DNA of 64,000 nt from Escherichia phage vB_EcoS_MM-2, in sequence record PV577658; one strand, 5' to 3'. The notes under the pieces were generated by a model. It was not told the origin of the DNA and ran no database searches. It saw only the letters and a list, made by a program, of their open reading frames with translations. This document shows positions 235-64,000 of the stretch, in pieces. A program made the position numbers and the translations under genes. The number at the start of each line of letters is the position of its first letter. Position 1 is the first letter of the stretch.

Positions 235-433
235 GAATGTGAAACACCTTAAATATCGCTTAATTTACAACGGACGTATGGAAACGGAAGACCTGGCCAA
301 ATTAGCTATTAACTCTAATGAGGTTACAGTGCGTGCGCTGGCAATTGAAAAGTTGCGTGCCTCTTATGAAAATCGTGTTATGGAACTAGAGGAGAAACTT
401 TATGGCATTCTCGAAGCCGATGCTACCAGATAA
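209..433 (+). CDS. hypothetical small early protein
   Basis: Track ORF, tightly packed with neighbours on the same strand; no recognisable motif. Confidence 0.4.
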   Translation: MQWSLIMTKNVKHLKYRLIYNGRMETEDLAKLAINSNEVTVRALAIEKLRASYENRVMELEEKLYGILEADATR

Positions 434-623
434 GGGTTTAAACGCCGCTTTGGAAAACGCATTAATGCAGCACTGGGAAACTGGCTATAAGGATGGTGTT
501 GAATCCTGCGCTACTATGCTAGAAGTTATTGCTAATACCTTAATGGAGAAAGGCAATAAAGAATTAGCTGAGCTATTAGACAGTATTGGGCAAAACTTCA
601 GAGAACAGGTGAAAAATGCGTAG
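402..623 (+). CDS. hypothetical small early protein
   Basis: Track ORF; stop overlaps the start of the Sir2-like gene. Confidence 0.4.
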   Translation: MAFSKPMLPDKGLNAALENALMQHWETGYKDGVESCATMLEVIANTLMEKGNKELAELLDSIGQNFREQVKNA

Positions 624-50552: not shown

Positions 50553-52310
50553 TTAGGTAAGGCGTTGAACTGTTACTCTTAATCTAGGTAGAAAAACTGC
50601 ACTACCTAAACTTACGTGCATAACTACCCCTAACTCTACATTTCCATTCCCCAGATTTTTAGCAGTATATATAAAACTATTTCTACTTAGGGCATTGTTA
50701 GGTGTGTATCTAAAAGCAGATGTAGTATGAAAAGGTACTAAATACCCTACTGGTAATGTTAAAATCTGGTGGAATATCGCGTCACCATTACTATAACTAT
50801 ATGCTCTTCTTCCTTGCACCTGAAACACACCGTTATTCCATGTATTAGCAGGGACACCTGCACAGTTAAGATTACCTGATATAACTTCAGTGGTAAGAAT
50901 TACTGTAGCATTGCCACCCGGTATACCTAGCCCAATAGTTGATAAACCAACGTATCTATCTCCTGTTCCTGGGTAGCTGGGGGTAATATCATCTCCCATA
51001 TAAGAACTACCTACATTTCCACCAAAAAGTCGTAATGGAACTGCTGATGGTCCCCAAACAACCCCGTGTTCATTACCGATAGTATTATCATTAGAGTTTA
51101 CGTACCATTGCTTACCAGCTCCGAATTTGTAAATACTAATTTGAGACTTAGCCCCTCCATAGTCCACAGGAGACCATAAACTCCCGTTACTAGAACCTAC
51201 AAGTTCACACCTTGCGGTGGTATCCCCAAAGGCCCCAGTATATGCTGCATTATTTCCAATATATTCCATATCTGGTCTATAACCTAAGTTACCGAAAGCG
51301 TTCTGGTTAATAAACTTGTATCCAGTATTGGGAAGACTAACCCCTTTAATTATGAAATTAGAAGGAGATATAAGAATATCTGAACCAGTAAAAGGATTAC
51401 CAGAGATACTCATACCACCATTTGAGTATCTTAAATTCAAAACGTACCAAATAACTTTAGTAGGAGTTATGTTATACCAATCTTGTAGTATTGTAGAATC
51501 ACCAGATTGATTAGCTAAATTAGTTGTAGAACCCCTACAAACAAACCTATTACCCCCATCATGATACATAGTATTTACATTACCAGGAAGACCTTGTCTT
51601 ACCCCACCATACCCACGTATGTTAGAGTTACAAACATAGAACCAATCGTGCCCTCTGTGTGCTGATCCTAAAGGAGACATCCATCCTGGGTCCCAGTAAT
51701 TTTGGTTATTCCCATCTATAGGTACTGTACTACTATTAGTAGGGAATCCTAACTGTGCAAAAGCTTCTGCAACAGTAACCCCTACTGGAGCTCCTGCACC
51801 TGGCCTAACTATACCATGATACGTACTATGTAGGGTAGTTCCACCAGTACCATTCCTAGAAATAGATTCTTCATGCCCTATAGATGGATTATAGTTATAT
51901 GTACCAGATGCCAGGCTATTACCAAATGCAAATCCACTAGTCTGGGAAACACTAGCAAAAGATCTAAAAGGATCTGCTTGAGTGGCAACTATAGTTTGAC
52001 CCACCTTACTCTGAGTACCATTAAGAAAAGCTCTGTGAGTACCATTAATCTCAATAGCAGTTAATATAACTCTACCAGGATCGTTAGATTTAATATTTAT
52101 TATGTCAGAGGGCATCTGACATACAAAAAACCCATTTCCGGCATTTCCTAACCCAGCCTCATAAGTACCATCAACTAGGACAAATGGCATATCACTATGA
52201 AAAATACTATTGGCATTTGGACTATAGTGACGATTAATGTCACCACCAGATTCAGTATTTAAAGATAGTACGGTCTTACCATCGCTATATTTTCCAGCGA
52301 AAAAACCCAT
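50553..52310 (-). CDS. receptor-binding tail protein (T5 pb5-like)
   Basis: 585 aa, Gly/Asn/Ser-rich beta protein, transcribed divergently from the lipoprotein gene as oad/llp are in T5. Confidence 0.6.
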
Positions 52311-52335: not shown

Positions 52336-52364
52336 TTGCTTTCATCCCTCTATTTTGCTATAAT
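52336..52364 (+). promoter_or_regulatory. early promoter (TTGCTT-17-TGcTATAAT) for the lipoprotein gene
   Basis: ttgctttcatccctctattttgctataat then agattcataaatt box. Confidence 0.6.
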
Positions 52365-52395
52365 AGATTCATAAATTAGAAATGGAGAGATAAAT

Positions 52396-52662
52396 ATGAA
52401 AAAGTTTGTGATTGCACTAGTTGCCGCAGTTATGTTATCTGGTTGTGCACCTGCTCCCAAACCATTTTGTACTGGATTTGTAAAATCTTTTGGTGGTGCG
52501 GGAGAAGAACATTACGGCCTCAAGGTTCAAAAAGTTCGTATTAAGGGAGATCGCTTCCCAGTAGTACAGCTCCGTACTAAGTTTGGATGGTGGGATCTCA
52601 GTCAGTTTGACCTTAAATATGGTGATTGTAAATTTAAACTAGAGCAATCTAACTACATGTAA
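52396..52662 (+). CDS. llp: Llp-type outer-membrane lipoprotein (receptor-blocking superinfection exclusion)
   Basis: Signal peptide with lipobox (MKKFVIALVAAVMLSGC); 88 aa precursor; position next to the receptor-binding gene. Confidence 0.75.
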   Translation: MKKFVIALVAAVMLSGCAPAPKPFCTGFVKSFGGAGEEHYGLKVQKVRIKGDRFPVVQLRTKFGWWDLSQFDLKYGDCKFKLEQSNYM

Positions 52663-52839
52663 TTAGTATAAAGCAAAAAGACATCTAAGTAAACTAAATT
52701 TTTTATTTTTTGGATGGTATATTGGCAGAAACCACTATGTAAGAAAATGAGAAGTCCTTCTAGGAAGTCACAAGCATGGTTGGTTATATACAAATTATAA
52801 AATATTTTAAAATACCATACTCATAGGAGCAAGAAAGAT

Positions 52840-52967
52840 ATGTCAAATAAAAGAAAGAACAGACGCGGAGAAGTGTACGAAGCGTGGATTAATATTTACG
52901 GATTTGGTTTTGTATTATTCCTAATCTTCGTAGGTTTTTGGTTAGCAGCTATGGCGGGGTGGATTTA
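52840..52967 (+). CDS. small membrane peptide (~42 aa), first of a coupled array
   Basis: Hand-translated: MSNKRKNRRGEVYEAWINIYGFGFVLFLIFVGFWLAAMAGWI; AGGAG RBS; stop overlaps next start (TAATG). Confidence 0.4.
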
Positions 52968-53123
52968 ATGGAATGGGTAATTATTGGCATATTCGTCTTA
53001 TTGATACTTCTCTTTGTAGGCTTACGTGTAATAGATACCTCTGTAACCCAAACAGAAATTAAATTAATGCAGTTGAGTAATAGATTATCTAGAATTGAAA
53101 CTTTATTAGAGGAGCGTAAATAA
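52938..53123 (+). CDS. small single-pass membrane protein (likely start at MEW, ~52968)
   Basis: MEWVIIGIFVLLILLFVGL hydrophobic helix then RIETLLEERK. Confidence 0.45.
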   Translation: MVSSYGGVDLMEWVIIGIFVLLILLFVGLRVIDTSVTQTEIKLMQLSNRLSRIETLLEERK

Positions 53124-53230
53124 TGGAATGGGTAATTATTGCACTACTGGGGATTGTGATTATTGGGCAATGTATTTTAGATAATTATTTAGCTAGAATT
53201 GAAACCTTACTATCGGAGAAACGTAAATGA
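53123..53230 (+). CDS. small single-pass membrane peptide (~35 aa), paralog of the previous gene
   Basis: Hand-translated: MEWVIIALLGIVIIGQCILDNYLARIETLLSEKRK. Confidence 0.4.
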   Translation: MEWVIIALLGIVIIGQCILDNYLARIETLLSEKRK

Positions 53231-53421
53231 TGGAAGTGGGAATTACACTAATAGTAATATTAGTCTGGGTAATCCTCATTGTCTCTCGTATAGTGTATCT
53301 CCGCCTAAAAACTCTAGAAGCTCAGGTGAAACAACAACAAGTTATTCTAGAAAAGTTAGTACTACTGCAACGTTGTGATAGCACCCGTATTCTGCAAATT
53401 GAGAGGGAATTAGATGTTTAG
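53227..53421 (+). CDS. small single-pass membrane protein
   Basis: MMEVGITLIVILVWVILIVSRIV hydrophobic helix then coiled-coil-like tail; ATGA overlap with upstream gene. Confidence 0.45.
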   Translation: MMEVGITLIVILVWVILIVSRIVYLRLKTLEAQVKQQQVILEKLVLLQRCDSTRILQIERELDV

Positions 53422-53659
53422 TATTGTAATTGCTTTTATTATCGGGATACTTGCGGGAGTTTTCGGGACAACTGCGGCAATCAACAAGCATCGTAAATAT
53501 ATTGCGGAAGTATCGCGGGAGATTGCGGAAAGGGAGCGGAAGTTTGACGAGAAACGTGCGGAGTTTGAGCGGGAGTGGTCGGACGGATCTCGGGCGTCGC
53601 GGAAGAGATTCCGTGAGTTCAGACCAGAACACAGGTTTGATGACCATTCTATGCGCTAA
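53414..53659 (+). CDS. small single-pass membrane protein with highly charged C-terminal tail
   Basis: MFSIVIAFIIGILAGVFGTTAA helix then Arg/Glu-rich tail. Confidence 0.45.
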   Translation: MFSIVIAFIIGILAGVFGTTAAINKHRKYIAEVSREIAERERKFDEKRAEFEREWSDGSRASRKRFREFRPEHRFDDHSMR

Positions 53660-53770
53660 TTTGACTTTTGCCAAATTTCATAAGATTACACATGGAGGTG
53701 TGTCCAGTGGGTCGGGGGAGAATACTTAGTCTGCTAACCGCCACCCCCCGTTACTATTATCATGGTAATT

Positions 53771-53807
53771 GTTTCACCCTGCAATTAAAATGGTTGCAGG
53801 GTGAAAC
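53771..53807. terminator. bidirectional terminator hairpin (perfect 14-bp stem)
   Basis: gtttcaccctgcaa-ttaaaatgg-ttgcagggtgaaac between the plus-strand peptide array and the minus-strand dmp-like gene. Confidence 0.7.
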
Positions 53808-53824
53808 AATTTCAACTTTAATTA

Positions 53825-54601
53825 TTACGCAACTTTTAATTTCTCGATATATTGTTGCGGGCTGCAACTATATTCTGCGCGTTCTTCCTCGGTCATACCT
53901 TCCCAACATAATTTCAAACGATCAGCTAGGAATTGATAATCATTATCATCATCGAGGGATTCATCAATAAAGGTTTCACCTATCAATGCCACGCCGATTG
54001 ATAGAATATCGTTAACGGCTTGCGCGTCCAGCGTTTTAAATCCGTATGATGCCGCCGCTGATAGTACACCCTTATGATCATCAATCATTGTAAAATCAGC
54101 GTTCGGATATAACTGTTTAAATAATTCAAAATAATAAGATTTATAAACTGCGTCTTTGCTGTGGTATATCTCGCTAACTTTATCAGCCTCAAAATATTTA
54201 TGCAGTGTATCGCGAGAAAACACGCGGATATTACTATCACCACGACCGCGCAAGCCTTGTTTGCGCAAATAATAATAGTCCGACTTGCTCATTAGTCGAG
54301 CGGTACAAATAATGTTTAAAGTATTTGCGTCATTCATGCACTGGCGCATATATGTAACAAGGGGCAATAAAGTATCTTGCATTATTAAATCATGTTTGCA
54401 GGCTTCATTTTTATACTTATTTAAATCTAAATTGCCCTCGCTATCAAAGCAAGGCGCTACACGATGGAAAGAATTAATGATAGTGCCGTCCAGATCCCAA
54501 ATCATGACGCGGGAAATATGCGGGAAATTACGGGTAATATTCATTTTAACTTGATTCATTTTGTTACGTTCTCCATTAAAGGGATTTAGTTTATCCAGCA
54601 T
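53825..54601 (-). CDS. dmp: HAD-family 5'-deoxyribonucleotidase-like protein (T5 dmp-like)
   Basis: HAD motif I MIWDLDGTI; first gene of a minus-strand operon with A1/A2-like genes; likely internal start giving ~244 aa. Confidence 0.55.
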   Translation of the reverse strand: MLDKLNPFNGERNKMNQVKMNITRNFPHISRVMIWDLDGTIINSFHRVAPCFDSEGNLDLNKYKNEACKHDLIMQDTLLPLVTYMRQCMNDANTLNIICTARLMSKSDYYYLRKQGLRGRGDSNIRVFSRDTLHKYFEADKVSEIYHSKDAVYKSYYFELFKQLYPNADFTMIDDHKGVLSAAASYGFKTLDAQAVNDILSIGVALIGETFIDESLDDDNDYQFLADRLKLCWEGMTEEERAEYSCSPQQYIEKLKVA

Positions 54602-54639
54602 TACCCGCTATTTATAAGCGGGTAATAATAAATCAACTA

Positions 54640-55032
54640 TTAAAGACCATAAGCCAACGCATCAGCGATAAAACTAACATCCTCACCGGATACGCTAGAA
54701 CGAATCCCCGCGCAGGTGTATACCTTTGCGCTCGCTAGCTGATCATCAAGGCAAGCGGGGCAAGGCGCGACAACTGCAAAGGCTAGACCAGATTTTACCG
54801 CGTCAATAATGATTGTTTCTTGTTTCATCGTGTCAACATAAACGCCTTTTGCTTTAATATGGCTGGTTAGTTTGCCTTGCGTATAGGCAAAGGTAGTAAC
54901 CTGTAAAGCGTCATTGAAATCTAATAATTCATCAATAACGTGCCCCGCCTCGACGTGGTAACGTTCACCATTAGAATAAACCAGAACAATGGAAGACTGA
55001 GCGCGATCGAATGGAATATTTTGCTTTTTCAT
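54640..55032 (-). CDS. small Cys/His-containing protein, possibly deaminase-like zinc-binding
   Basis: HVEAGH ... PCPAC motifs, but spacing (~70 aa) is longer than in canonical cytidine deaminases. Confidence 0.3.
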   Translation of the reverse strand: MKKQNIPFDRAQSSIVLVYSNGERYHVEAGHVIDELLDFNDALQVTTFAYTQGKLTSHIKAKGVYVDTMKQETIIIDAVKSGLAFAVVAPCPACLDDQLASAKVYTCAGIRSSVSGEDVSFIADALAYGL

Positions 55033-55071
55033 ACTTATAAAACTCCAATTAGTTTAATATAGGGATTTAAT

Positions 55072-55362
55072 TTATTTGATAATAATCTGCATCTGGTACG
55101 GCGTTAATTCACCGTTTACGGGTAAATTATTATCGCTTAGCCACTCATAAAAAGCGCCATCATCATCAAAAGGAACAACATCATTATCACGATAATCGAT
55201 GGAAATAATGCCATCCGTATTAGTTTTGGCGGCTAGGATAGGCCCAAAGCTGTAAACTTTATCGGATTCCATTTCATCCGGTGAGATGAATGCTTTTTCG
55301 TCCAATGTTTTGGGTAATGTAACTTTCATTTTTTGACTCCTGTAATAGCGGCTATATTTCAA
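55072..55362 (-). CDS. hypothetical pre-early protein (likely start at Met ~55329)
   Basis: Track ORF with conserved upstream translation-initiation region. Confidence 0.4.
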   Translation of the reverse strand: MKYSRYYRSQKMKVTLPKTLDEKAFISPDEMESDKVYSFGPILAAKTNTDGIISIDYRDNDVVPFDDDGAFYEWLSDNNLPVNGELTPYQMQIIIK

Positions 55363-55382
55363 GCCGCTAGGGGATAATTTAA

Positions 55383-57047
55383 TTACGCGAAAAATTTACC
55401 GTTTTTAAAGTCAATCAAAGTGCGCTGACCGTTTGCATAGGTAATTAAATGCGTTTGCGTCCAGCTTGACGCGCCAACGTTGTAACCCATATCCAGACTA
55501 CCAGCTACGCCAGCGGTATAAACGCCACCGTAAATGCTAGCGGTATGGGTGTGTCCCGTGTTTAGCTTGCCCAATTTCTTAAACTGTTTAGGATTGCCAC
55601 GACTGCCGTTAATGCCGTTGTGACCGTGTACGCCGCACTCAATGCCTGCAATCTTGAAAGATTGATCAGTGGTTAGGAAAATGGCGTTAAACTCACAACC
55701 TGCAACCTTGCGCAGCGCATAATCTAGCACGTTAAAAGTATCATCATGATCACTGATCGCCGCGTAAATTGCAGCATTCAGGCGGTGATATAGTTCGGCG
55801 TTGGCTGGATCGTCTTTGATGTTAGCATTACGATCATCTAACCAGCGGGATAGCGCCAAATCGTGATTAGATTCAACAATGATTGTTTGAGAGAAATCAC
55901 GTTCCATTGATTCCAGCACGCGCCCCGTATCGATAAGATCATCCAGAACTTTATCACGTCCAGCGGCATACTGTTTTGCTAGGAATACACCGGATGCACG
56001 GTTATGATGATTGCGCGATGTAAAATCATGCACGTCATGGATAAACTGATATTTTGGTTTAAGAATATCAAGCAAGCTATTTTCGCCAGCCCATGACGCA
56101 ACGGCACAATCATCATCTAATTTTTCCGCATGAATATCGCCATACTGCAAGCCTAAAACATGCCCCGATGTTTCATAGCATCCGGCAGGAGTAGCGCAAA
56201 CATTCAGATCATAAAACACCCCGCTTTCGTCCATTGTTTCAAGCTGGCGAACAAAAAATTCCCCGTCCTCGTCGAACTCAACAATCAGCGCGCCGAAGTT
56301 ATGCAGAGCTTCCGCTTTTTGTCCTGCTTTCTGCTGAATATAGTTTTTAAGCGTTGCCGTTCCGGTTGAATACATACGGCGCACTACTTCACCTTTTAAA
56401 GCTGGCACGCTTTCAGCGGTGATTTTAGCGTGACCAATTGCCAGCCCCTCAATATTGAGCGCCGTTGCAGTTTCTGCAAATCCTGAAAGCGGGTAATCTG
56501 CGGTTGGCAAAACATTAATTTCAGCCATGAAAGCAAAACGGCGGTTATTTAAAAACACGTTTTTGCTGCAAATATATTTATCAAATGCGGGATCGTATTT
56601 GATACCGTCTGCACCTTCTTCATTCTGGAAGCCATTTTTATTATAAATATACTTAGAAACAAGCAAATCAGCACCGATATATTCAGCGAATTTTTCCAGA
56701 CTTGCTAAAAAGTTTTTATGCGGGAAAGTATTATTTTGAATCGACGTAATAATAAAGCGTTTACCCTGTTTTACTTCCCATTGCTCAACCGTACTAGAAA
56801 CAATTCCCGCCGCTTCTGGGCGCTCATCGTTTTTAATGGCTTTTGCTACTTTTGCCGCTTTCGGTTTAGCTGGTTTATTTGCTTCCAGCCAGTCGCAGAT
56901 AGCGGTTGAATGCTTCGTTGTATCGTAGACCGCTTTTGATATATCGTCGCAGACTTCCAGTTTAGTAGCGCGCAGACGTTTACCATAGAAATTAAAGTCA
57001 GCGGCCATTTTCAGGATAACGGTTTGTTTTTCTGCGGAAATAATCAT
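55383..57047 (-). CDS. A1: A1-like pre-early protein with calcineurin-like metallophosphoesterase motifs
   Basis: 554 aa; GDIHAE and GHTHTAS metallophosphatase-type motifs; size and context match T5 A1 as I recall it. Confidence 0.6.
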   Translation of the reverse strand: MIISAEKQTVILKMAADFNFYGKRLRATKLEVCDDISKAVYDTTKHSTAICDWLEANKPAKPKAAKVAKAIKNDERPEAAGIVSSTVEQWEVKQGKRFIITSIQNNTFPHKNFLASLEKFAEYIGADLLVSKYIYNKNGFQNEEGADGIKYDPAFDKYICSKNVFLNNRRFAFMAEINVLPTADYPLSGFAETATALNIEGLAIGHAKITAESVPALKGEVVRRMYSTGTATLKNYIQQKAGQKAEALHNFGALIVEFDEDGEFFVRQLETMDESGVFYDLNVCATPAGCYETSGHVLGLQYGDIHAEKLDDDCAVASWAGENSLLDILKPKYQFIHDVHDFTSRNHHNRASGVFLAKQYAAGRDKVLDDLIDTGRVLESMERDFSQTIIVESNHDLALSRWLDDRNANIKDDPANAELYHRLNAAIYAAISDHDDTFNVLDYALRKVAGCEFNAIFLTTDQSFKIAGIECGVHGHNGINGSRGNPKQFKKLGKLNTGHTHTASIYGGVYTAGVAGSLDMGYNVGASSWTQTHLITYANGQRTLIDFKNGKFFA

Positions 57048-57137
57048 AGTAATAAAACTCCATTAAAGGGATTAGATTAATAACGGCAATATTGCCAAAT
57101 ATAACGCCTCAAATAATAGGCGTTATAATTTGCAACA

Positions 57138-57335
57138 TTAATTTAAAGGCACTAGGCTAGAACTAACACCACAAGCAACGGCAGCGATAAAACAAAGCAA
57201 GCCCAAACGTTTTGCTAATTTAGATTTACGTTTAAAATAATATGAATCTAAATCATTTTGAAAATAAGCGAACAATAACGAGGGCGCCATAATAAACAAG
57301 CCTAGAATTAATGATTCAGTAGGATAAAAGATCAT
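57138..57335 (-). CDS. small membrane protein (two predicted TM helices)
   Basis: MIFYPTESLILGLFIMAPSLLFAYF ... LGLLCFIAAVACGVSS; AGGAG RBS. Confidence 0.4.
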   Translation of the reverse strand: MIFYPTESLILGLFIMAPSLLFAYFQNDLDSYYFKRKSKLAKRLGLLCFIAAVACGVSSSLVPLN

Positions 57336-57429
57336 TTTAAAAACTCCTGATTTAAGGGAAGAAAATAACTATCGCTAAACAGTTATATTATTGCCCCCTC
57401 ACTAAAAAAAGGGGGGCAAGGTATAACTA

Positions 57430-57837
57430 TTATTCGCCTGCGGCTTGTTTTACTTCCTCGGCAACGCCTAACAATTGCGCTACTGCGTCCAGCGTTTCAA
57501 GTTTTGCACTTTCAAGGCTTGCCAGATCATCGGCATCTTTGATAATGCCGGAATCGATAGCGTGTTTTGCAATAACGCGTACATAATGAGCTTTGCGGAT
57601 TGAACTACCGCCGCCAACTTTGCGGGGCTTACCGCTTTTTTGATATGCTTTTGCGCTGGTCAATTTTGACCGAACGGATACGGGAGAAGCCGCGCCTACT
57701 GCTTTTGCAATCTCTTTCAGGCCGTCGCTATTTGCGAAATCTAAACCGTTTTCATTAATTAACTGTTGATACATGGAAACAGCTTTCTGAGTGTTTTCTT
57801 CATTCCATGCGAATTTTGCGGTTTTAGCGTTAGTCAT
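57430..57837 (-). CDS. A2: A2-like pre-early DNA-binding protein
   Basis: 135 aa (~15 kDa), basic central region; position upstream of the A1-like gene. Confidence 0.5.
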   Translation of the reverse strand: MTNAKTAKFAWNEENTQKAVSMYQQLINENGLDFANSDGLKEIAKAVGAASPVSVRSKLTSAKAYQKSGKPRKVGGGSSIRKAHYVRVIAKHAIDSGIIKDADDLASLESAKLETLDAVAQLLGVAEEVKQAAGE

Positions 57838-57933
57838 GATGTAACTCCTATTAGTTTAATTTAAGGGATTAGATTAACTTAATGTTAATCGTTATATCCC
57901 CCTGAAATAAGGGGATATAAAGTTAACACTAAT

Positions 57934-58185
57934 TTACAATACAGCTTCCCATTTTTCGTTGCGTTGAACAACCTTTACAACATCGCCGGATTTAACGCGA
58001 ACGCTAAAAACGGGCTTGCCGTTGTTACTACGTTCATTTTCAGCGTATACCGCGTCGATTGTATCGAACGGCATAAGCGCCGCACCTTTAATACGTTCGG
58101 CCTTTCCGGTTAATTCATCCGTTTTAGTAACGAAAGGAATGAAGACGAATTGACCAACTTTCGGCGCGGTAATAACGTTTTGCAT
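57934..58185 (-). CDS. hypothetical pre-early protein
   Basis: 83 aa; first gene of the minus-strand block. Confidence 0.4.
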   Translation of the reverse strand: MQNVITAPKVGQFVFIPFVTKTDELTGKAERIKGAALMPFDTIDAVYAENERSNNGKPVFSVRVKSGDVVKVVQRNEKWEAVL

Positions 58186-58415
58186 AATATAAACTCCTAG
58201 TTATTTGGGGATTGTTCCGCATTACCTGCTAGAAAGTAACAGCAGGTAATAAGTAACAATCCGCTCGCCAATATAATCAATTTTAAAGAACTCCACGTAG
58301 GCCGCTATATCCCGTTAGGGGGCGGGATGCATTATGGTAAGCACCGACCGTCAAATTTTATCAAGTTATCGCTCTTATCGAACTGGGTACATCTTAAAAC
58401 CTATCGGCTAGGTTG

Positions 58416-58619
58416 TCAAACAATTTTTTGCAATTTTTTATGATTTTCTTTTAGGTCAATCATAATATTTCGCCAGATCATTTCCAGACCTTGCTGGCGA
58501 CCTTTCTTGTACTGCGTGAATCTATATCTTACTGATCTTTGAGCTACTGTCAACAAATTTTTTGTTTTGCTATCTAGTGCCTTAATAGGCTTGCCAGTGA
58601 TCAAAAGCGTTTGTTTCAT
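58416..58619 (-). CDS. hypothetical small basic protein
   Basis: 67 aa, Lys/Arg-rich; weak RBS. Confidence 0.3.
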   Translation of the reverse strand: MKQTLLITGKPIKALDSKTKNLLTVAQRSVRYRFTQYKKGRQQGLEMIWRNIMIDLKENHKKLQKIV

Positions 58620-59066
58620 ATCGTCGATTCCTTATAATGAATAAGTTTACCGCCGATAGGCTTTAAGATGTACCCAATTTTTAAAGAGCGTGGCGGTAAA
58701 CTTCCCGCCGTGTAGTTCGTCATTGCCGCCCTACGAGATAAATAATAGGGGATTCCCGAAAATGGCGCAACCTTATTTTTGTAAAGAAATGTAAAGGTAA
58801 AACTCACCGGACACCGTGCGGCGACGGCCTAAAATTAAAAGAAACGGGCGCGCGAATACCACAAAATAAAGCAAATAGGCAAGTAATTTTTTCATTTATA
58901 TTTGCTTTGCCCTACTTGACAAAATCTAAAAAGCTCGTGGTAACGATAAACGGCTTATCCCCTTATGATGGGATGGCTAAAAACTTTATTGCGTTCTGGA
59001 GCGTTTTAGGCGCATTCTAGCCTTGTTGATAACTTATCCCCAAAAGCAAAAATGAAATTTTCCTAG

Positions 59067-59099
59067 TTATCCACTTGACTTTTATTTTCCAGTGGATAA
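59067..59099. promoter_or_regulatory. inverted pair of DnaA-box-like 9-mers around a TTGACT hexamer
   Basis: agTTATCCACTtgacttttattttccAGTGGATAAct; 11-bp perfect inverted repeat, each arm one mismatch from TTATCCACA. Confidence 0.5.
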
Positions 59100-59273
59100 C
59101 TACTTATTTTATGAAATAAATTAATTGACTTTTATTTGTTAGTATGCATCGGAAAGATAGCAGACTAATAATTGCTAGAATGATAATCATGCTGGTGGAT
59201 TGTAACGACCTGAATTATTAGCAGACTATTAATCACGGAAAAATCTCATTAGCCAACTAACTATTTCATGATA

Positions 59274-59300
59274 TATAATATACATATAAATTAATGAGAA
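59274..59300 (+). promoter_or_regulatory. promoter-like element of the early family
   Basis: tataat followed by atacatataaattaatgagaaa box; no convincing -35; no gene for ~430 bp downstream. Confidence 0.35.
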
Positions 59301-59351
59301 ATAATAACTATAAGAAATCATCTAGCTAAGTGAGAACCACTATCATTTAAG

Positions 59352-59372
59352 TTATACACAAAGTTATCCACA
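59352..59372 (+). promoter_or_regulatory. two adjacent DnaA-box-like sites
   Basis: gTTATACACAaagTTATCCACAgc: one perfect consensus 9-mer and one with a single mismatch. Confidence 0.5.
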
Positions 59373-59443
59373 GCACTTTTTGACTTGACACGATAGGCGG
59401 CGATATAAGGACTTTTACACAGACTTATCTACAGGTTATTCCA

Positions 59444-59459
59444 CTGTATAAATATACAG
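59444..59459. promoter_or_regulatory. LexA (SOS) box-like palindrome
   Basis: CTGTATAAATATACAG fits CTGT-N8-ACAG with AT-rich spacer. Confidence 0.45.
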
Positions 59460-59726
59460 GGTAAAAAGGTAGTGTTAACAACTGCAATCAATTTTAAGCG
59501 GCTTAAATCGCATTCTAACGAGCTAAACGCTGCGGGGTAATATTAAAGTAAAGCCTTAATGCGTCGCCCTGGTGGCTTCGCCGTGGTTTGCTCTTTATTG
59601 CACCGCTGCGCGGTTAGCATAAAAATAGGCGCTAGGCAAGGAAAATAAAAAGGTAAAATAATATTTGCCTATGCTAGAAATTTACCTTTATCATTCACTC
59701 ACCGATTAACGAGGGAGGCCGAACAA

Positions 59727-60506
59727 ATGAGGCTTTATAAACCTGATAATGCCACCGTTTTAAAAGGTGCATTGCGCAACCTGCTGGATGGTAGCAAGTC
59801 AACCAGCATTAAACATTTTATTAACAAGATTGAAACTATTCATCAAAACTTTTTTGATGATTATGACGCTTATGATATGGATAGTTTTCTACCCTTATAT
59901 AGACAAGGGGCAACGCTAGTTTTATATAATCGGGATTGCCATATCTTTACAGGCAGGGGAGCGGGGCCGGATACCGATTTTATTGTTGCGCAGGGTAATA
60001 ATATTGTTGCGTATCATAGCAATTCAGGCCGTCAATCATTTAATATAAATAGTTTTGAGCTTATTGGACTTGATCTGATAAATGGACTTTCTAGCATTGA
60101 GGGATTTTTAGATGTTATCTGGAAGTATTTACCCGCTGGATGGCATAAGCCGGATAACGACGGATCTCAATATACCGGTATAATGGCTTTTGATGGCGAC
60201 GGTAATTTTTTGTTACCACGGGAGCTATACCCATATATTTATGATGGGGATATAGAAAGCGCTGGTTTTTCTTTCTGGAAAGATGAAGATCAGATTATTG
60301 ACAGCGTAGAAAACCATGCTGTAAATTCTAACACTCAAAGCGTTAACACTCAAACTACTGAAAACAAAGGAAAAAACACTATGACCAAGATTGCTAACAT
60401 CGTTGCCGCTAATAAATCCGCCGTTGTAAATGCTGCAAAACTGGAAGCGGGTAAAATTGCACTGACTCAAATCACGAAAGTAGCGGCTAAAAAGCACCGT
60501 TCATGA
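59727..60506 (+). CDS. hypothetical protein, 259 aa
   Basis: Track ORF with RBS GAGGGAGG; no recognisable motif. Confidence 0.45.
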   Translation: MRLYKPDNATVLKGALRNLLDGSKSTSIKHFINKIETIHQNFFDDYDAYDMDSFLPLYRQGATLVLYNRDCHIFTGRGAGPDTDFIVAQGNNIVAYHSNSGRQSFNINSFELIGLDLINGLSSIEGFLDVIWKYLPAGWHKPDNDGSQYTGIMAFDGDGNFLLPRELYPYIYDGDIESAGFSFWKDEDQIIDSVENHAVNSNTQSVNTQTTENKGKNTMTKIANIVAANKSAVVNAAKLEAGKIALTQITKVAAKKHRS

Positions 60507-60736
60507 TTAAAGGCTATATTGATACGCCGATTGGTCGAGTAGTGATTGCTAACCTGCTAAGTGTAGCGGTTGACCAGTACGCACCGACTAACCAGAAAGC
60601 GAAAGCGGTAGCAGGGGCGGCTATGGAAGCGGCAATGCTGGAAATGGTGCAAAGTTTTAACATCGCTGAAATGATTGATGAAATGGTGAAAGGTATTGAT
60701 ATTTCTACTTTTACCACTAGCACCGAAATCGAGTAA
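60503..60736 (+). CDS. hypothetical protein
   Basis: Track ORF, ATGA overlap with upstream gene. Confidence 0.4.
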   Translation: MIKGYIDTPIGRVVIANLLSVAVDQYAPTNQKAKAVAGAAMEAAMLEMVQSFNIAEMIDEMVKGIDISTFTTSTEIE

Positions 60737-60801
60737 TAATATTTAGTGGGGATTATTTCCCCACTTTACTACTCCCTTGTTAATTAATAGGAGGCTAACT
60801 A

Positions 60802-61296
60802 ATGGCTGAGGAAAAATACGGCTTCTCGCTAGGAGAAGTGAGCACGGCTAAACATGATATGATCATTTTAGTCGATTGTCATACTGGCTATTGCGGAGAA
60901 GGGAACACCGAAGAATACTTTGTTCCTGCTGGTACGGATCTGGACGCTTTCGCTCATGAAATGGCTATTGATAATGCTTCTCGTTTTGGTAGCGATGGCT
61001 ATGAAGACGAAGAAACTGGCGAATGGTATGAAAATGAAAACGTATATGCAAGCCTTTATCATTATCAGCTAAGTAAATCCGGCACATATGTAAACGGCGG
61101 CGATCCTATTAATTCCGTCATGAAATTAATTATTAAATATGGTGGCGTCGAGATAATTGATAACAAAGCGGTAATATACGCAAACCGATTAAAACAGCTT
61201 GTTTATATTCCTGATAGTACCCGATGGGATGAATACGCTGTTTTGCATGACGAATTGAAACGATGTTTCAATATTGAATCCCTGCAAGTAGTCTAA
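60802..61296 (+). CDS. hypothetical acidic protein
   Basis: Track ORF with RBS AGGAGG. Confidence 0.45.
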   Translation: MAEEKYGFSLGEVSTAKHDMIILVDCHTGYCGEGNTEEYFVPAGTDLDAFAHEMAIDNASRFGSDGYEDEETGEWYENENVYASLYHYQLSKSGTYVNGGDPINSVMKLIIKYGGVEIIDNKAVIYANRLKQLVYIPDSTRWDEYAVLHDELKRCFNIESLQVV

Positions 61297-61323
61297 TGTA
61301 AAGTTTTGTAAAGGTCGCCTTTT

Positions 61324-61632
61324 ATGGTGGCCTTTTTTGTTATAATGCTTTTACACCAAAACGGTGGATTGAAAATTTTCCCAAAAATTTGGAGGCTTAA
61401 AATGGTTGCTTATTCTTCTGCTAGTCATCTGTTTACCGCGCAAGGCTGGGTATCTAATCGTGCTGTCATCTATGAAATGGTGCAGGAGTTCGGCATTGCT
61501 AAAACTTATAATACCATTCAGGAACTATATAACGCCGATAAAATCGATCAGCAAACGGCTGGCTTTTTACTGGATACCCTGAAAGCTGAACATTGCACTA
61601 AAAAACAAGCCGCTAAAATTGTTTTAATGTAA
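61324..61632 (+). CDS. hypothetical protein (likely start at Met ~61402)
   Basis: GGAGG RBS precedes the internal Met; followed by hairpin cggggcg..cgccccg. Confidence 0.4.
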   Translation: MVAFFVIMLLHQNGGLKIFPKIWRLKMVAYSSASHLFTAQGWVSNRAVIYEMVQEFGIAKTYNTIQELYNADKIDQQTAGFLLDTLKAEHCTKKQAAKIVLM

Positions 61633-61681
61633 TTAATAACGGGGCGTTACTTTCGCCCCGATAACTAGGAGGCTATCACAA

Positions 61682-61832
61682 ATGGTTATTTTTCGATCTA
61701 TTTTAGCGGGTATCTTGGGCGCTATTTTATCGTTATTTGCGATAGCTTTCGGCGTTCACGCTGTTATTATTGGCGCTGGCATTGCTGCGTTTTCTTATCT
61801 GCTGGGCTGCATGACTAGTAAAGGAGAATAAA
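61682..61832 (+). CDS. small membrane peptide (~50 aa)
   Basis: Hand-translated: MVIFRSILAGILGAILSLFAIAFGVHAVIIGAGIAAFSYLLGCMTSKGE; AGGAGG RBS. Confidence 0.35.
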
Positions 61833-61833
61833 A

Positions 61834-62046
61834 ATGATCCGCAACGTTTCCCTTGCACGTTCGAAAGGCTTTAAGCTGGTGGATGTTAACACGTTCGAGT
61901 GGGAAGATTGTAAAATCGAATATGTAGCACGTAACAAAAATGCCTTTCGTGTTACCGAGAAAAAATTTGATAAGCGCGGCAACGTGATAGCTGAAACAGT
62001 TAAACATTTTGCCACCTTTTACGCTGCTTTCCGTGGGGTATTATGA
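61834..62046 (+). CDS. hypothetical protein
   Basis: Track ORF. Confidence 0.4.
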   Translation: MIRNVSLARSKGFKLVDVNTFEWEDCKIEYVARNKNAFRVTEKKFDKRGNVIAETVKHFATFYAAFRGVL

Positions 62047-62146
62047 TTCAGCAAATTAAAACGGCTTTTCGTTTTTGGGGCGTCCTGCCTTCAATTGGTT
62101 TTATTCTGATAATTATTAGTCAGCTAATGATCATCGGCGGAACTAT

Positions 62147-62506
62147 TTGGGAGCTATGCAAATGATAATTTATGAAGGCAATCGCTTTGTTGCTAATTGC
62201 CGTCCGGCATTATTAGCAAACTATTTAAACCAGCTTTCCCCAGCTTATAAGGGCGTTATTAATATTTATGAGGGAAAGGCGCATTATAAAATTAATGCGG
62301 TCGTTGCCCGTGAACTAGCATTTCAATTTTTGACCTTTGCATCTTGTGACGTTCAGGTTATGGGTGAGGCATTAATCGCGGAAAATGAAGAGGATTTTAT
62401 TAATATTTTCCGTAAGGTATGCACTGAGCGCTTGATAATGAAAGGCGCGTATATTCAATCAACTGCGGAAAGTATTGAAACAGCATTTCGAAAGGTGGCG
62501 CAATGA
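62147..62506 (+). CDS. hypothetical protein
   Basis: Track ORF. Confidence 0.4.
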   Translation: MGAMQMIIYEGNRFVANCRPALLANYLNQLSPAYKGVINIYEGKAHYKINAVVARELAFQFLTFASCDVQVMGEALIAENEEDFINIFRKVCTERLIMKGAYIQSTAESIETAFRKVAQ

Positions 62507-62606
62507 GATTATATATTTTCGTTGGTAATGTTAAGGCAGCTAATGATTCCGCTGGTGGCGACAACGTTCGCCACCATTGGCAAAAATATATTTACTAGGA
62601 GTTATT

Positions 62607-62711
62607 ATGTCTGGTTTAATGTTTACCTTATTAGTAGTTTATAGCATAATTACGGCAGGAATAGTAACTTATGTTACTAGTAAAATTTGGCCGGGAATAT
62701 ATGGTAATTTT
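62607..62711 (+). CDS. small membrane peptide (~34 aa)
   Basis: Hand-translated: MSGLMFTLLVVYSIITAGIVTYVTSKIWPGIYGNF; RBS AGGAG. Confidence 0.3.
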
Positions 62712-62729
62712 TAATAACGGAGCGTTATT

Positions 62730-62933
62730 ATGAGCAATAAAATTATTGTAACCAAAATCAGTACAATGGTTGATGTTTTTTACGTGCCAGATACGCCGGA
62801 GAATCGGCAAGCGGTCGAGCGGGGCGAATATGATAAAGTGATTTATGATCACGATGGTTATTATCAGTATTTGGTGGATTCCTACGGGGAGGAGGAGAAG
62901 ATCACGCATCGACTACCGGAGGAGGGTTTATGA
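62730..62933 (+). CDS. hypothetical acidic protein
   Basis: Track ORF with RBS ACGGAG. Confidence 0.4.
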   Translation: MSNKIIVTKISTMVDVFYVPDTPENRQAVERGEYDKVIYDHDGYYQYLVDSYGEEEKITHRLPEEGL

Positions 62934-63083
62934 AACGATGGTTTAATCACTGGTACAAGCGGTTTTTAGTACGCCGTCGCAAGTCTAGGCATCAAGATGA
63001 GTGGCGGGAGTGGGCAAAGCGTAACGGTTGCCCGCTACTATAATAATCACGGGGCGCAACTATCGGGAAGTGCCCCCAATTCT

Positions 63084-63106
63084 CAAATGAGAATCATTCT
63101 CATTTG
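63084..63106. repeat. perfect 11-bp-arm palindrome caaatgagaat-c-attctcatttg
   Basis: Core aatgagaatcattctcatt recurs at ~63474 (imperfect) and ~63581 (perfect). Confidence 0.7.
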
Positions 63107-63299
63107 ACCGCGCCCGCGATGGTTAGCCTGCTAATGATTAGGGTGTTACGTGTCGCCTTGTGTGATCGTTAGCGAGCTAACTAATTTTCAAGCCTCCTCC
63201 AATTTTGCCCTTGTTTTAGTATCTCCACCAAAATTAAACGCGTTAGAATGCGATCTAGGACGTTTTAACGCTATATTAGAATTATTCACTGCGTAGGAA

Positions 63300-63319
63300 T
63301 ACTGTATATTTATACAGTA
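63300..63319. promoter_or_regulatory. LexA (SOS) box-like palindrome, 19/20 match to consensus
   Basis: TACTGTATATTTATACAGTA versus TACTGTATATATATACAGTA. Confidence 0.5.
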
Positions 63320-63399
63320 GGATAAGCTGTGATAAGTCTGTTAATAACACCCCAAAATGGCTAGGATTCTGTCAAGTCAAATCGTGCTGTTAATAAGTC

Positions 63400-63408
63400 T
63401 GTGGATAA
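63400..63408 (-). promoter_or_regulatory. DnaA-box-like site (perfect 9-mer on minus strand)
   Basis: tgtggataa is the reverse complement of TTATCCACA; flanked by repeated gataagtctgt. Confidence 0.45.
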
Positions 63409-63426
63409 CTTAAATAATAGTGTTTC

Positions 63427-63600
63427 TCACTTCCGTTCTTAAATACGAATCACTATCATTTGCGTTCCACTTTCTAAATGAGAATCATTCTGCTTTTTAA
63501 AGGAGAATCGTTTCACTTCCTGAATAATTCTCACTTCCATTCTTAAATGCGAATTATTATCATTCTCATTCCGCTTTTTAAATGAGAATCATTCTCATTA
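63427..63600. repeat. two ~70-100 bp imperfect direct repeats carrying the aatgagaatcattctcatt palindrome
   Basis: ctcacttccgttcttaaatacgaatcactatcatt... and ctcacttccattcttaaatgcgaattattatcatt..., each ending in the palindrome core. Confidence 0.65.
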
Positions 63601-63639
63601 TCATTCGCATTCAGGCGAGCAGGGCAATTGCCCTGCGCT

Positions 63640-63760
63640 TTTGTGCAAATCCGACATTGCTCCACGGGTGTTACGTGCGGGCGTGTATGTGCGAATCCCT
63701 GTGGGGTATGTGCAAATCCGACACGGTTTTTCTAGGATTAAGATGTGCGAATCCGACAAG
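63640..63760. repeat. four iteron-like copies of ATGTGC(A/G)AATCC(GACA)
   Basis: tgtgcaaatccgaca, tgtgcgaatccctgt, tgtgcaaatccgaca, tgtgcgaatccgaca at ~20-35 bp spacing. Confidence 0.65.
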
Positions 63761-63770
63761 ATTTTTGTGA

Positions 63771-63960
63771 CTTCGATTGGAGGGTGTGTGATTGTGTGAG
63801 TTTGGGGAGAAGTTGAGAGAGCGAGAAAAATTTGAGGGAACTGCGGGAGGGGCGCATGTTTGGTGCGGAGCACCTGATTTGCGGGGATTTTGGGGAAGAG
63901 TTGAGAAGATTTGGGTTAATTTGAGATTAGTGCAGAAAAAGTAAAATTTTATTAGCTAAA
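63771..63960 (+). other. polypurine, C-depleted tract with repeated (t)ttgag(a/g) motifs
   Basis: Almost no C on the plus strand; gttgagagag, tttgaggg, gttgagaag, tttgagattag; no credible ORF. Confidence 0.5.
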
Positions 63961-64000
63961 TGGAGCAAAATAGCTTGACAAGTGAAAATTCTTGTGGCTC

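Follow-up and report, generated by a model that had tools for sequence, protein, structure and literature searches.

Organization of the Five-Gene Array

The window that we analyzed, a stretch of 64,000 nucleotides from Escherichia phage vB_EcoS_MM-2 (PV577658), belongs to a T5-like coliphage and, over the 1.7 kb that was searched, matches Escherichia phage vB_EcoS_MM-1 with 100% identity. Its plus strand contains an array of five small genes, o1 (52840..52968), o2 (52968..53123), o3 (53123..53230), o4 (53227..53421), and o5 (53414..53659), which encode proteins of 42, 51, 35, 64, and 81 aa, respectively. The original prediction had described such a run of tiny ORFs, and all five are present. 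The start of o2 is an ATG; a longer version of the gene beginning at a TTG at 52938 is unsupported. Each gene is preceded by a purine-rich Shine-Dalgarno-like site (from o1 to o5: AGGAG, GGGGTGG, GAGGAG, GGAG, and GAGAGGGA), and the stop and start codons of neighboring genes overlap by 1, 1, 4, and 8 nt. The genes had been described as linked by TAATG or ATGA overlaps; this is the case at three of the junctions (TAATG at o1/o2 and o2/o3, ATGA at o3/o4), but o4 and o5 are joined instead by the 8-nt overlap ATGTTTAG. The 1-, 4-, and 8-nt overlaps recur in 21-22 of the 23 related loci that we compared.

Upstream of the array, a sigma-70 promoter (52336..52364, plus strand; TTGCTT-17 nt-TATAAT, then AGATTCATAAATT) can be read from the sequence; it may resemble the T5 promoter PN25. 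The T5 reference record has a promoter annotated at the equivalent site upstream of llp. In the window this promoter precedes a gene (52396..52662, plus strand), outside the array, for a receptor-blocking lipoprotein of the llp/cor type (88 aa; so annotated in PV577657) that matches PHROG 1119, "Cor superinfection exclusion protein" (E 1.8e-26), and the Pfam lipoprotein attachment site (lipobox). The array itself is headed by a conserved leader (52790..52839, plus strand) that carries a -10-like TAAAAT and the AGGAG of o1. When the 200 nt upstream of o1 were aligned from 20 distinct loci, homology between phages with different receptor/llp modules was found to start at this leader. The T5 version of this leader block reads TTTACA-17-TAGAGT with an upstream TG, whereas that of the window has the -10-like box and no acceptable -35, so that a separate promoter before o1 is uncertain.

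Downstream, between o5 and the convergent dmp gene, lies a perfect hairpin with a 21-bp stem (53767..53811), for which the RNA fold has a dG of -32.2 kcal/mol and a z of -7.2, with none of 200 shuffles equally stable. We infer that it functions as a bidirectional terminator, which is probable. The array had been placed between the lipoprotein gene and a strong bidirectional terminator; this location stands, with the correction that the hairpin sits inside the right terminal repeat, which extends from about 53702 to 64000, as calculated by offset from the 100% identical record PV577657, where the repeat is annotated from 107633. The array is the final coding unit ahead of this repeat and closes the unique portion of the genome.

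Conservation across T5-Like Phages

The array has direct orthologs in T5 (NC_005859), where T5.159, T5.160, T5.161, and T5.162 correspond to o1, o3, o4, and o5 with 75-91% protein identity. The T5 genes are like those of the window in their order, in the lengths of their products (42, 35, 64, and 81 aa), in their overlaps, and in their location, flanked by the oad-llp module and the right terminal repeat, and the T5 RefSeq entry notes for each of them "contains single transmembrane domain." The window differs from T5 in having a fifth gene, o2, between the equivalents of T5.159 and T5.160, and in having, in place of T5 pb5 and Llp, a 585-aa receptor module that is of the BtuB type in relatives, together with the Cor-like lipoprotein. 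The array is therefore a real feature that is already annotated in T5; it is not a new kind of element but a rediscovery of annotated hypothetical membrane proteins.

We compared 23 related loci and assessed synteny in MM-1, T5, ESCO30, Stitch, SP3, DaisyDussoix, HildyBeyeler, and Shivani, as well as in 18 IMG/VR loci. Gene order and strand are the same throughout, and the cassette is bordered by the receptor-binding/llp module on one side and by the right terminal repeat on the other and is convergent with dmp. Across related loci the array genes have dN/dS values of 0.12-0.34 and an excess of substitutions at third codon positions; o1 and o3 are found in all 23 loci (dN/dS 0.135 and 0.117, respectively), and o4 has a value of 0.305. 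The number of phage records that contain o5, 443, equals the number that contain a large terminase at least 90% identical. The cassette also occurs in the Epseptimavirus Stitch; protein identity to Epseptimavirus is 44-80%, with the same layout. Frames, lengths, and junctions are thus conserved across T5-like phages far beyond chance, and the five ORFs are genuine genes maintained under purifying selection. The idea that they are spurious, arising in a noncoding or regulatory spacer by the terminal repeat or opposite genes on the other strand (such as a 110-aa ORF at 53342-53674), could draw on their very short length and on GenBank records that annotate only part of them or use arbitrary names, but its probability is negligible and it is refuted by the conservation pattern, since the selection and third-position signals lie in the plus strand frames, start codons, Shine-Dalgarno sites, and overlaps are conserved, and the layout persists in Epseptimavirus.

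The cassette is kept with both FhuA-type (T5) and BtuB-type receptor modules. Shivani retains it although no lipoprotein gene stands at the llp position of that phage. A dependence on Llp is therefore rejected, as the cassette occurs without the lipoprotein gene and with all receptor types, and any argument from the adjacency of the two is weakened. Some natural genomes carry a truncated o4 or o5 (56, 55, and 35 aa), which could mean that these genes are dispensable or could reflect sequencing errors. Taken as a whole, the cassette is an accessory operon of essentially all Tequintavirus and Epseptimavirus phages, in which it forms the right-hand limit of the unique genome.

Each of the five proteins matches a PHROG over the whole profile: o1 matches 8596 (E 6e-31), o2 and o3 both match 6369 (E 1.5e-16 and 8e-25), o4 matches 5851 (E 7.5e-31), and o5 matches 6447 (E 6.4e-48). 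These four function-less T5-like families are the only PHROGs recovered, and none of the five proteins had a match that exceeded the threshold in Pfam, NCBIfam, or PADLOC. Word-index searches of 5.8 billion proteins with o5, o4, and o2 returned only proteins of T5-like phages, and an exhaustive HMMER profile search of 1.84 billion representatives with o5 returned five matches, all of its own family and none outside T5-like phages. Sequence searches of the PDB yielded chance coiled-coil matches or none. The names "tail fiber protein" and "tail assembly protein," which array ORFs bear in GenBank and UniRef, are unsupported. Some GenBank records omit part of these ORFs from their annotation.

In a full-text literature search for T5.159-T5.162 we found no paper that mentions them, and a T5 mutagenesis paper, a preprint on phage transposon mutagenesis, and the PhageExpressionAtlas paper contain nothing on the array genes. 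The virion-proteome text of the BF23 paper lists structural proteins and a few enzymes only; proteins this small and hydrophobic easily escape detection.

A Paralogous Gene between Direct Repeats

The gene that sets the window apart from T5, o2, is an additional paralog of o3 and T5.160, with which it shares the pattern MEWVII...RIETLL. The original prediction that at least two members of the array are paralogs is borne out by a profile comparison of o2 with o3 (hhalign probability 95.6%, E 1e-8) and by their common match to PHROG 6369. For o4 as a third paralog, an hhalign probability of 10% and a shared DNA motif in the start region are suggestive only.

Of about 443 T5-like records, only about 36 contain o2, and its proteins form only six clusters, each of which shares at least 90% identity with the query. 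The gene is bounded by two copies of a 21-nt direct repeat, TAATGGAATGGGTAATTATTG, the first spanning the o1 stop and o2 start (52966..52986, plus strand) and the second the o2 stop and o3 start (53121..53141, plus strand). The copies are 100% identical and are spaced by 155 nt, the length of the o2 unit. Recombination between them would be expected to give exactly the four-gene arrangement of T5, and in phages that lack o2 the same TAATG joins o1 to o3.

Transcription

RNA-seq data are available for Bas33, a near-identical phage, at 20 min post infection; TPM values are 219/127 for llp, 162/137 for o2, and 462/408 for o4 (PMC13250531 Dataset S1). In the same unstranded data, o1 and o3 have only 1-2 reads each and o5 has a TPM of 22/13 (PMC13250531). 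These low counts are probably a counting artifact for overlapping genes of 108-129 bp. Between llp and o1 we found no stable structure (z +0.66). Given the lack of a hairpin there and the similar RNA levels on either side, the promoter at 52336..52364 is likely the start of a transcript that continues through the five small genes, which would then all be transcribed from the strong llp promoter. An absence of expression and of conserved frames would have spoken against the array; instead, relatives keep the reading frames, and Bas33 transcribes the locus.

Architecture and Predicted Topology of the Proteins

Every protein of the array contains a single segment of strong hydrophobicity (Kyte-Doolittle mean of 2.3-3.1 for the best stretch of 19 residues). 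The original prediction had all five begin with a hydrophobic helix, which describes o2 through o5 but not o1; the latter has a basic start (MSNKRKNRRGE..., including the motif KRKNRR) and a hydrophobic helix that runs up to the C-terminus as an anchor ending in ...VGFWLAAMAGWI (GxxxAxxxG). In o2 the N-terminal transmembrane helix is followed by a short leucine-zipper-like tail, in o3 by the tail ARIETLL, and in o4 it runs on into a 40-residue helix; AlphaFold2 models residues 2-63 of o4 as one helix (mean pLDDT 85). The o5 protein has an N-terminal transmembrane helix with a GxxxG motif (IIGILAGVFG), a juxtamembrane AINKHR, a charged helix, and a variable tail past F66, and its AlphaFold2 model is helical over residues 2-69 (pLDDT 67). 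In an alignment of o5 proteins, the GxxxG, AINKHR, and FEREW motifs are invariant, and there are at least five alternative C-termini. The description of the locus as an array of translationally coupled genes for tiny membrane proteins with a single pass each is thus supported by the Shine-Dalgarno sites, the conserved overlaps, purifying selection, the hydrophobicity of the products, and the AlphaFold2 helices of o4 and o5.

The distribution of charge suggests how these proteins would be oriented. The C-terminal flanks of the anchors of o2 through o5 contain 2-4 K/R, compared with none in the N-terminal flanks, while the N-terminal flank of o1 contains five. By this prediction, o2 through o5 would insert N-out/C-in in the manner of the Pf3 coat protein, and o1 would be anchored through its C-terminus with its basic N-terminus inside. 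PspB and proteins with N-out insertion of the Pf3 coat type have a similar design, an N-terminal anchor with an acidic or uncharged tip, basic juxtamembrane residues, and a helical extension. The positive-inside bias is weak in o2 and o3, where K/R are balanced by D/E, so a reversed topology is possible. The predicted topology would leave almost nothing (2-3 residues) exposed in the periplasm.

Possible Functions

The explanation that we favor as a whole, and to which we give slightly better than even chances, is that the array encodes cotranslated bitopic mini-proteins of the inner membrane (T5.159-T5.162 plus a paralog of T5.160) that assemble with one another and act at the membrane. The five proteins would be made in fixed ratios. 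The o1 and o5 proteins might pack through the GxxxG/glycine-zipper motifs of their transmembrane helices, and o2 through o4 through short juxtamembrane leucine zippers, resulting in a homo- or hetero-oligomeric bundle at the cytoplasmic face of the inner membrane. Such a bundle could act within the membrane by binding a larger membrane protein, whether of the host or of the phage, or by altering permeability, two possibilities suggested by the known workings of small membrane proteins. As to its role in infection, our preference, a guess that is more probably wrong than right, is the protection or closure of the inner membrane of the infected cell, either by excluding the entry of secondary DNA or by controlling membrane integrity and lysis timing, independently of the receptor block by Llp at the outer membrane.

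A narrower proposal is superinfection exclusion at the inner membrane, in which the array would block DNA entry by a secondary phage, as do T4 Imm and HK97 gp15, and would complement the receptor block by Llp at the outer membrane in one "lytic conversion" transcript. Exclusion of this kind is usually the work of small inner-membrane proteins (T4 Imm/Sp, HK97 gp15), and the array proteins are likewise small phage proteins of the inner membrane. The array lies directly downstream of the exclusion gene llp/cor with no hairpin between them and similar RNA levels, and the PHROG label of the o5 family is "moron, auxiliary metabolic gene and host takeover." However, there is no sequence relationship to T4 Imm/Sp or HK97 gp15, no match to exclusion families (Imm, Sp, gp15, or SieA type) was found in PHROGs, Pfam, or PADLOC, and the cassette is independent of llp, as in Shivani, and of receptor type. 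The predicted topology, with so few residues in the periplasm, also argues against it, and we judge this proposal unlikely.

The cassette could alternatively control lysis timing or permeability, as antiholin-like, holin-accessory, or viroporin-like oligomers that tune the membrane potential or the triggering of the T4-T-like holin T5.041. An N-terminal transmembrane helix with a charged tail, a GxxxG/glycine zipper, and oligomerization motifs is the design of many pore-forming or holin-regulating peptides, and o2 has a marginal match to a PHROG holin family. That match, the best to any holin family (phrog_689; o2 only, E 0.5), is not significant. The T5 lysis genes, comprising the endolysin T5.040, the holin T5.041, and the Rz-like spanins T5.044 and T5.045, are at 20-23 kb, about 90 kb away and not adjacent to the array, and we know of no lysis inhibition in T5. 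A role in lysis timing appears rather unlikely.

Another candidate function is host takeover or antidefense, with each mini-protein binding a host inner-membrane machine and inhibiting it from inside the membrane; candidate targets would be the divisome, FtsH/LapAB, a transporter, or a membrane-bound abortive-infection effector. Bacterial small membrane proteins, e.g., AcrZ and MgrB, commonly act by binding membrane machines. LapA, YhcB/ZapG, and FtsL/FtsB share with the array proteins an N-terminal anchor, an acidic or uncharged N-terminal tip, basic juxtamembrane residues, and a helical extension on the cytoplasmic or periplasmic side, and this common anchor-plus-coiled-coil design is visible as sub-threshold resemblances of o5 to LapA, ZapG/YhcB, and FtsL and of o2 to GspM. 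The early region of T5 contains further coupled pairs of this design, T5.020/021 and T5.030/031. Nevertheless, every such match falls below its curated cut-off (LapA_dom, 22.2 bits versus 28; ZapG-like, 13.8 versus 33.5; FtsL, 15 versus 50), there is no PADLOC match, and no data point to a target; we consider this function improbable.

The T5 pairs, along with gp067/gp066 of Klebsiella phage Sugarland, resemble the cassette in having an M-E start, about 20 hydrophobic residues, a heptad-like helix, and overlapping gene pairs, and the Sugarland genes occupy the same genomic position, beside the gene for the receptor-binding protein. The similarity is weak and at the level of composition (8-12 bits in a search of 15 sequences), and homology is not established. 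These pairs enter into a more speculative reading, which we think quite doubtful, that the cassette is an inner-membrane device both universal among and specific to T5-like phages, a phospholamban-like or viroporin-like hetero-oligomer of four or five cotranslated single-helix proteins, serving a step that is assigned to no T5 gene. Candidate steps would be closure of the DNA-entry path or recovery of the membrane potential after the two-step DNA transfer, or an immunity to secondary DNA injection that operates at the inner membrane and to which the outer-membrane receptor is irrelevant. If the cassette is such a device, it and the "M-E + anchor + zipper" mini-proteins of T5 and Sugarland might constitute one unrecognized functional class.

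Finally, a spanin-like envelope bridge, with the coiled-coil proteins of the array as i-spanins and the adjacent lipoprotein as o-spanin, can be rejected. A lipoprotein gene followed by genes for coiled-coil proteins with an N-terminal transmembrane helix superficially resembles Rz/Rz1, and two-component spanins (lambda Rz/Rz1; T5.044/T5.045) do share the N-terminal anchor, the coiled coil, and a neighboring lipoprotein gene. However, T5 has its own spanins elsewhere, and no spanin family is matched at E <= 1 in PHROGs, Pfam, or NCBIfam. The tails of the array proteins, at 15-60 residues, are much shorter than those of spanins, are judged too short to cross the periplasm, and are predicted to be cytoplasmic, as the enrichment of K/R C-terminal to the anchors predicts C-in rather than the N-in/C-out topology of spanins. 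The lipoprotein, moreover, is a member of the Cor/Llp family, for which a function and an FhuA-bound structure are described as established (PMC9586334), and the cassette persists without it. This alternative is accordingly very improbable. More generally, none of the five proteins matches a holin, spanin, exclusion, or defense-related family in PHROGs, Pfam, NCBIfam, or PADLOC.

Implications for T5-Like Phages

T5 is a classic model, and phages of its kind are frequent in collections assembled for therapy and biocontrol. The final coding unit of their unique genome, present in essentially every member whatever its receptor, is nevertheless without an assigned function. If the array proteins do act at the inner membrane, the cassette would provide a compact system, open to genetic work, of membrane-modulating phage mini-proteins. 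It may then bear on the design of cocktails, by way of cross-exclusion among phages, and on engineering, where it could serve as an insertion site or be a source of toxicity.

Architecture of the array

The five small plus-strand ORFs at 52840-53659 (o1 to o5) are best read as an accessory operon of co-translated, predicted bitopic inner-membrane mini-proteins that would assemble and act within the membrane. The ORFs named in the original prediction are all present and consecutive, and encode 35-81 aa: o1 (52840-52968, 42 aa), o2 (52968-53123, 51 aa), o3 (53123-53230, 35 aa), o4 (53227-53421, 64 aa), and o5 (53414-53659, 81 aa). A purine-rich Shine-Dalgarno-like sequence lies upstream of every ORF, and every product has one strongly hydrophobic stretch (best 19-residue Kyte-Doolittle mean 2.3-3.1). 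TAATG/ATGA overlaps had been described throughout; they occur at three junctions (TAATG at o1/o2 and o2/o3, ATGA at o3/o4), while o4 and o5 share an 8-nt overlap, ATGTTTAG. Likewise, the hydrophobic helix said to begin every protein does so in o2-o5 but not in o1, which starts with the basic MSNKRKNRRGE, has its hydrophobic segment at the C-terminal end, and, judged by its sequence, looks like a tail-anchored protein. With these adjustments, the structural reading of the array was right.

Ahead of the anchor, o2-o5 lack Lys and Arg and usually have a Glu at position 2-3; the 15 residues that follow the anchor include 2-4 Lys/Arg. In o1, five Lys/Arg precede the C-terminal anchor. Under the positive-inside rule, the soluble parts would all be cytoplasmic, with only 2-3 residues predicted to be periplasmic; the bias is weak in o2 and o3. 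AlphaFold2 models o4 as a single continuous helix (residues 2-63, mean pLDDT 85) and o5 (pLDDT 67) as a helix spanning residues 2-69 and followed by a disordered tail. The C-terminal end of o1 is an invariant, glycine-zipper-like GFWLAAMAG, short heptad-like Leu/Ile repeats can be read in o2-o4, and o5 contains two invariant motifs, GxxxG (IIGxxAGxFG) and the juxtamembrane AINKHR, as well as a conserved FEREWxDGSR block.

Beyond F66 (window 53612-53659), at least five alternative o5 tails occur: EFRPEHRFDDHSMR, MSESGDKPVDRRSS, AKVSDEE, KIDGKS, and VDSLSSPK. Among the relatives examined, those in which an HNH homing-endonuclease gene separates o5 from the terminal repeat (loci L005, L006, L025, and L030) have an o5 tail unlike that of the window; it therefore seems that the 3' end of o5 is rewritten by endonuclease insertion.

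Genomic setting and transcription

Over a 1.7-kb query around the array, the window matches Escherichia phage vB_EcoS_MM-1 (PV577657, Tequintavirus, Demerecviridae) at 100% identity and many other T5-like phages at 90-96%; we took the gene order from the MM-1 annotation. The minus strand carries the terminase genes and the gene for the receptor-binding tail protein (50553-52310), and divergent from the latter is llp (52396-52662), annotated as a 'Cor superinfection exclusion' lipoprotein. The right terminal repeat starts at about 53702; its first gene, dmp (dNMP phosphatase, 53825-54601), is convergent with the array. Between o5 and dmp, within the repeat, lies a perfect 21-bp hairpin (53767-53811, dG -32 kcal/mol, z -7.2). 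This is the 'strong bidirectional terminator' of the original prediction, and we infer from the structure a putative terminator. The spacer between llp and o1, which has no homology to that of T5-type loci, contains a minus-strand 46-aa ORF (52653-52793, a hypothetical protein in PV577657) and a plus-strand 28-aa ORF (52714-52800); we saw no support for either as a gene.

A canonical, strong promoter, TTGCTT-17-TATAAT, can be read upstream of llp (52336-52364), and T5 has an annotated promoter at the equivalent site. It is followed by AGATTCATAAATT (52336-52377 with the promoter), and the two together appear to resemble closely the strong T5 promoter PN25 of expression vectors. Because no stable RNA structure was found between llp and o1 (z +0.66), co-transcription of llp and the array is the simplest model. 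The ~50 nt upstream of o1 mark the onset of homology among phages with different receptor modules; in T5 this block, upstream of T5.159, gives a promoter-like TTTACA-17-TAGAGT, an arrangement that is not formed in the window.

Phage Bas33 (HildyBeyeler) has the same five genes, and RNA-seq has been published for it at 20 min after infection (replicates 1 and 2; PMC13250531 Dataset S1). TPM values are 219 and 127 for llp, 162 and 137 for o2, 462 and 408 for o4, and 22 and 13 for o5, with 1-2 reads each for o1 and o3. Read counts of adjacent overlapping mini-genes thus differ about 100- to 1000-fold (o1 2 and o3 1-2, versus o2 334-479 and o4 1243-1704; genes bas33_0187-0192; PMC13250531). Since mapping was unstranded, with 150-nt paired reads on overlapping genes of 108-129 bp, the near-zero counts for o1 and o3 most likely reflect a counting artefact; where a gene is shorter than the read, standard gene-level counts are evidently unreliable. 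The data show transcription of the locus rather than expression of each ORF.

Conservation and prior annotation

The reading frames are conserved across relatives. In 23 related loci (5 annotated records and 18 IMG/VR contigs), o1, o3, and o5 are always found, o4 passes the identity filter in 22 (the divergent o4 of Stitch is nevertheless intact), and ORF lengths are constant in nearly all. Pairwise Nei-Gojobori dN/dS ranges from 0.117 to 0.342 (o1 0.135, o3 0.117, o4 0.305, o5 0.342; o2 0.33 from four sequences only), compared with 0.14 for the lipoprotein gene, and third codon positions of the plus-strand frames hold most substitutions. The 1-nt overlap of o1 with o3 or o2 is present in 23/23 loci, the 4-nt o3/o4 overlap in 22/23, and the 8-nt o4/o5 overlap in 21/23; the Epseptimavirus Stitch has the same layout, with an o4 that is only 44% identical. 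This conserved translational coupling, together with the motifs and topology, suggests that the proteins may be made in a fixed ratio and associate in the membrane.

By tblastn, o5 occurs in 443 phage records, which is also the number with a large terminase at least 90% identical to that of the window, so essentially every Tequintavirus/Epseptimavirus phage has the cassette. A few genomes, including Salmonella phage SP3 (L005/L007), NBSal005 (L012), and other loci, carry damaged copies: an o5 of 55 aa with the anchor partly deleted, an o5 cut at 35 aa, and an o4 cut at 56 aa. Either these are sequencing errors or single cassette genes are dispensable in the laboratory.

The T5 reference genome has T5.159, T5.160, T5.161, and T5.162 at exactly the same site, as orthologues of o1, o3, o4, and o5 (79%, 91%, 75%, and 90% protein identity), each noted as 'contains single transmembrane domain'. 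Each of the five window proteins has a full-length match to a T5-like PHROG family. Of these four families, three have no assigned function, and that of o5 (PHROG 6447) is a 'membrane protein' in the category 'moron, auxiliary metabolic gene and host takeover'. The array is thus already annotated in T5 and in the identical GenBank record of MM-1, and PHROGs already include its families; a full-text search found no paper naming the four T5 locus tags. GenBank and UniRef product names include 'tail fiber protein' for o3 and 'tail assembly protein' for o4 (ESCO30; UniRef), and in ESCO30 the receptor-binding protein gene is itself labelled 'receptor-blocking protein'. Nothing supports the tail names, and all of these product names look like propagated annotation errors.

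Pfam, NCBIfam, and PADLOC gave only sub-threshold matches (LapA, 22.2 versus 28 bits; ZapG; FtsL; GspM), attributable to the anchor-plus-coil design. In word-index searches, 5.8 billion proteins yielded nothing beyond T5-like sequences. With o5 as the query, an exhaustive HMMER profile search of 1.84 billion representatives gave five matches, all from the o5 family, and PDB searches gave no meaningful match.

The additional paralog o2

At least two of the ORFs were expected to be paralogs, and o2 and o3 are (hhalign 95.6%, E 1e-8; both match PHROG 6369). o2 is restricted to about 36 phage records, and its proteins fall into only six clusters, none below 90% identity to the query. On either side of o2 lies a copy of a perfect 21-nt direct repeat, TAATGGAATGGGTAATTATTG (52966 and 53121, spacing 155 nt), and recombination between the repeats would yield exactly the four-gene T5 arrangement. 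Near their 3' ends o2 and o3 have a common 37-nt segment (78% identity). With only 37% protein identity, o2 is not a fresh copy of o3; tandem capture of a divergent allele via the conserved ends is a plausible origin. o4 has the same start-region DNA motif and M-E start, and its relationship to o2/o3 is below significance in hhalign.

Similar genes elsewhere

In another member of the Demerecviridae, Klebsiella phage Sugarland (terminase 88% identical), o5 is not detectable. At the array position (71-760, minus strand), it has a pair of overlapping genes that share the array's design: gp067 (74 aa, MEVVIG...) combines a TM segment with a coil, and gp066 (153 aa) has a TM segment, a coil, and a Ser-rich tail. 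The pair adjoins the receptor-binding protein gene at the record end, a site that has no lipoprotein gene. Both are analogues of the array in position and architecture, with no detectable homology to it. A Proteus Novosibvirus, also of the Demerecviridae, has soluble proteins at the equivalent position. In the T5 early region, T5.020/021 and T5.030/031 are further coupled pairs of the 'M-E + anchor + coiled coil' type (NC_005859 2511-2929 and 5543-5988; overlapping, with ~20 hydrophobic residues). Their similarity to o4 is weak and at composition level (8-12 bits); they may represent an unrecognized class of T5 membrane mini-proteins.

Likely role

Three candidate roles fit membrane mini-proteins of this kind: exclusion of secondary DNA entry at the inner membrane, an effect on lysis timing or membrane integrity, and a block on a host membrane machine or defence effector. 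Exclusion or membrane protection ranks first, because the array is downstream of llp; it is still an unlikely role, since the cassette is independent of llp. Phage Shivani, which according to its authors is without llp, keeps the cassette, upstream of which it encodes an acidic soluble protein and a homing endonuclease, and the cassette is present with both receptor-binding protein types (T5/FhuA-type and 585-aa-type loci), with no co-variation. A spanin or core lysis role was rejected because the T5 endolysin (T5.040), holin (T5.041), and spanins (T5.044/045) are all encoded away from this locus, and the array tails are short and predicted to be cytoplasmic. In the BF23 paper, the text on the virion proteome makes no mention of such proteins, a weak negative.

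The array is an ordinary though uncharacterized feature of T5-like genomes, not a new kind of system, and it deserves a deletion experiment.
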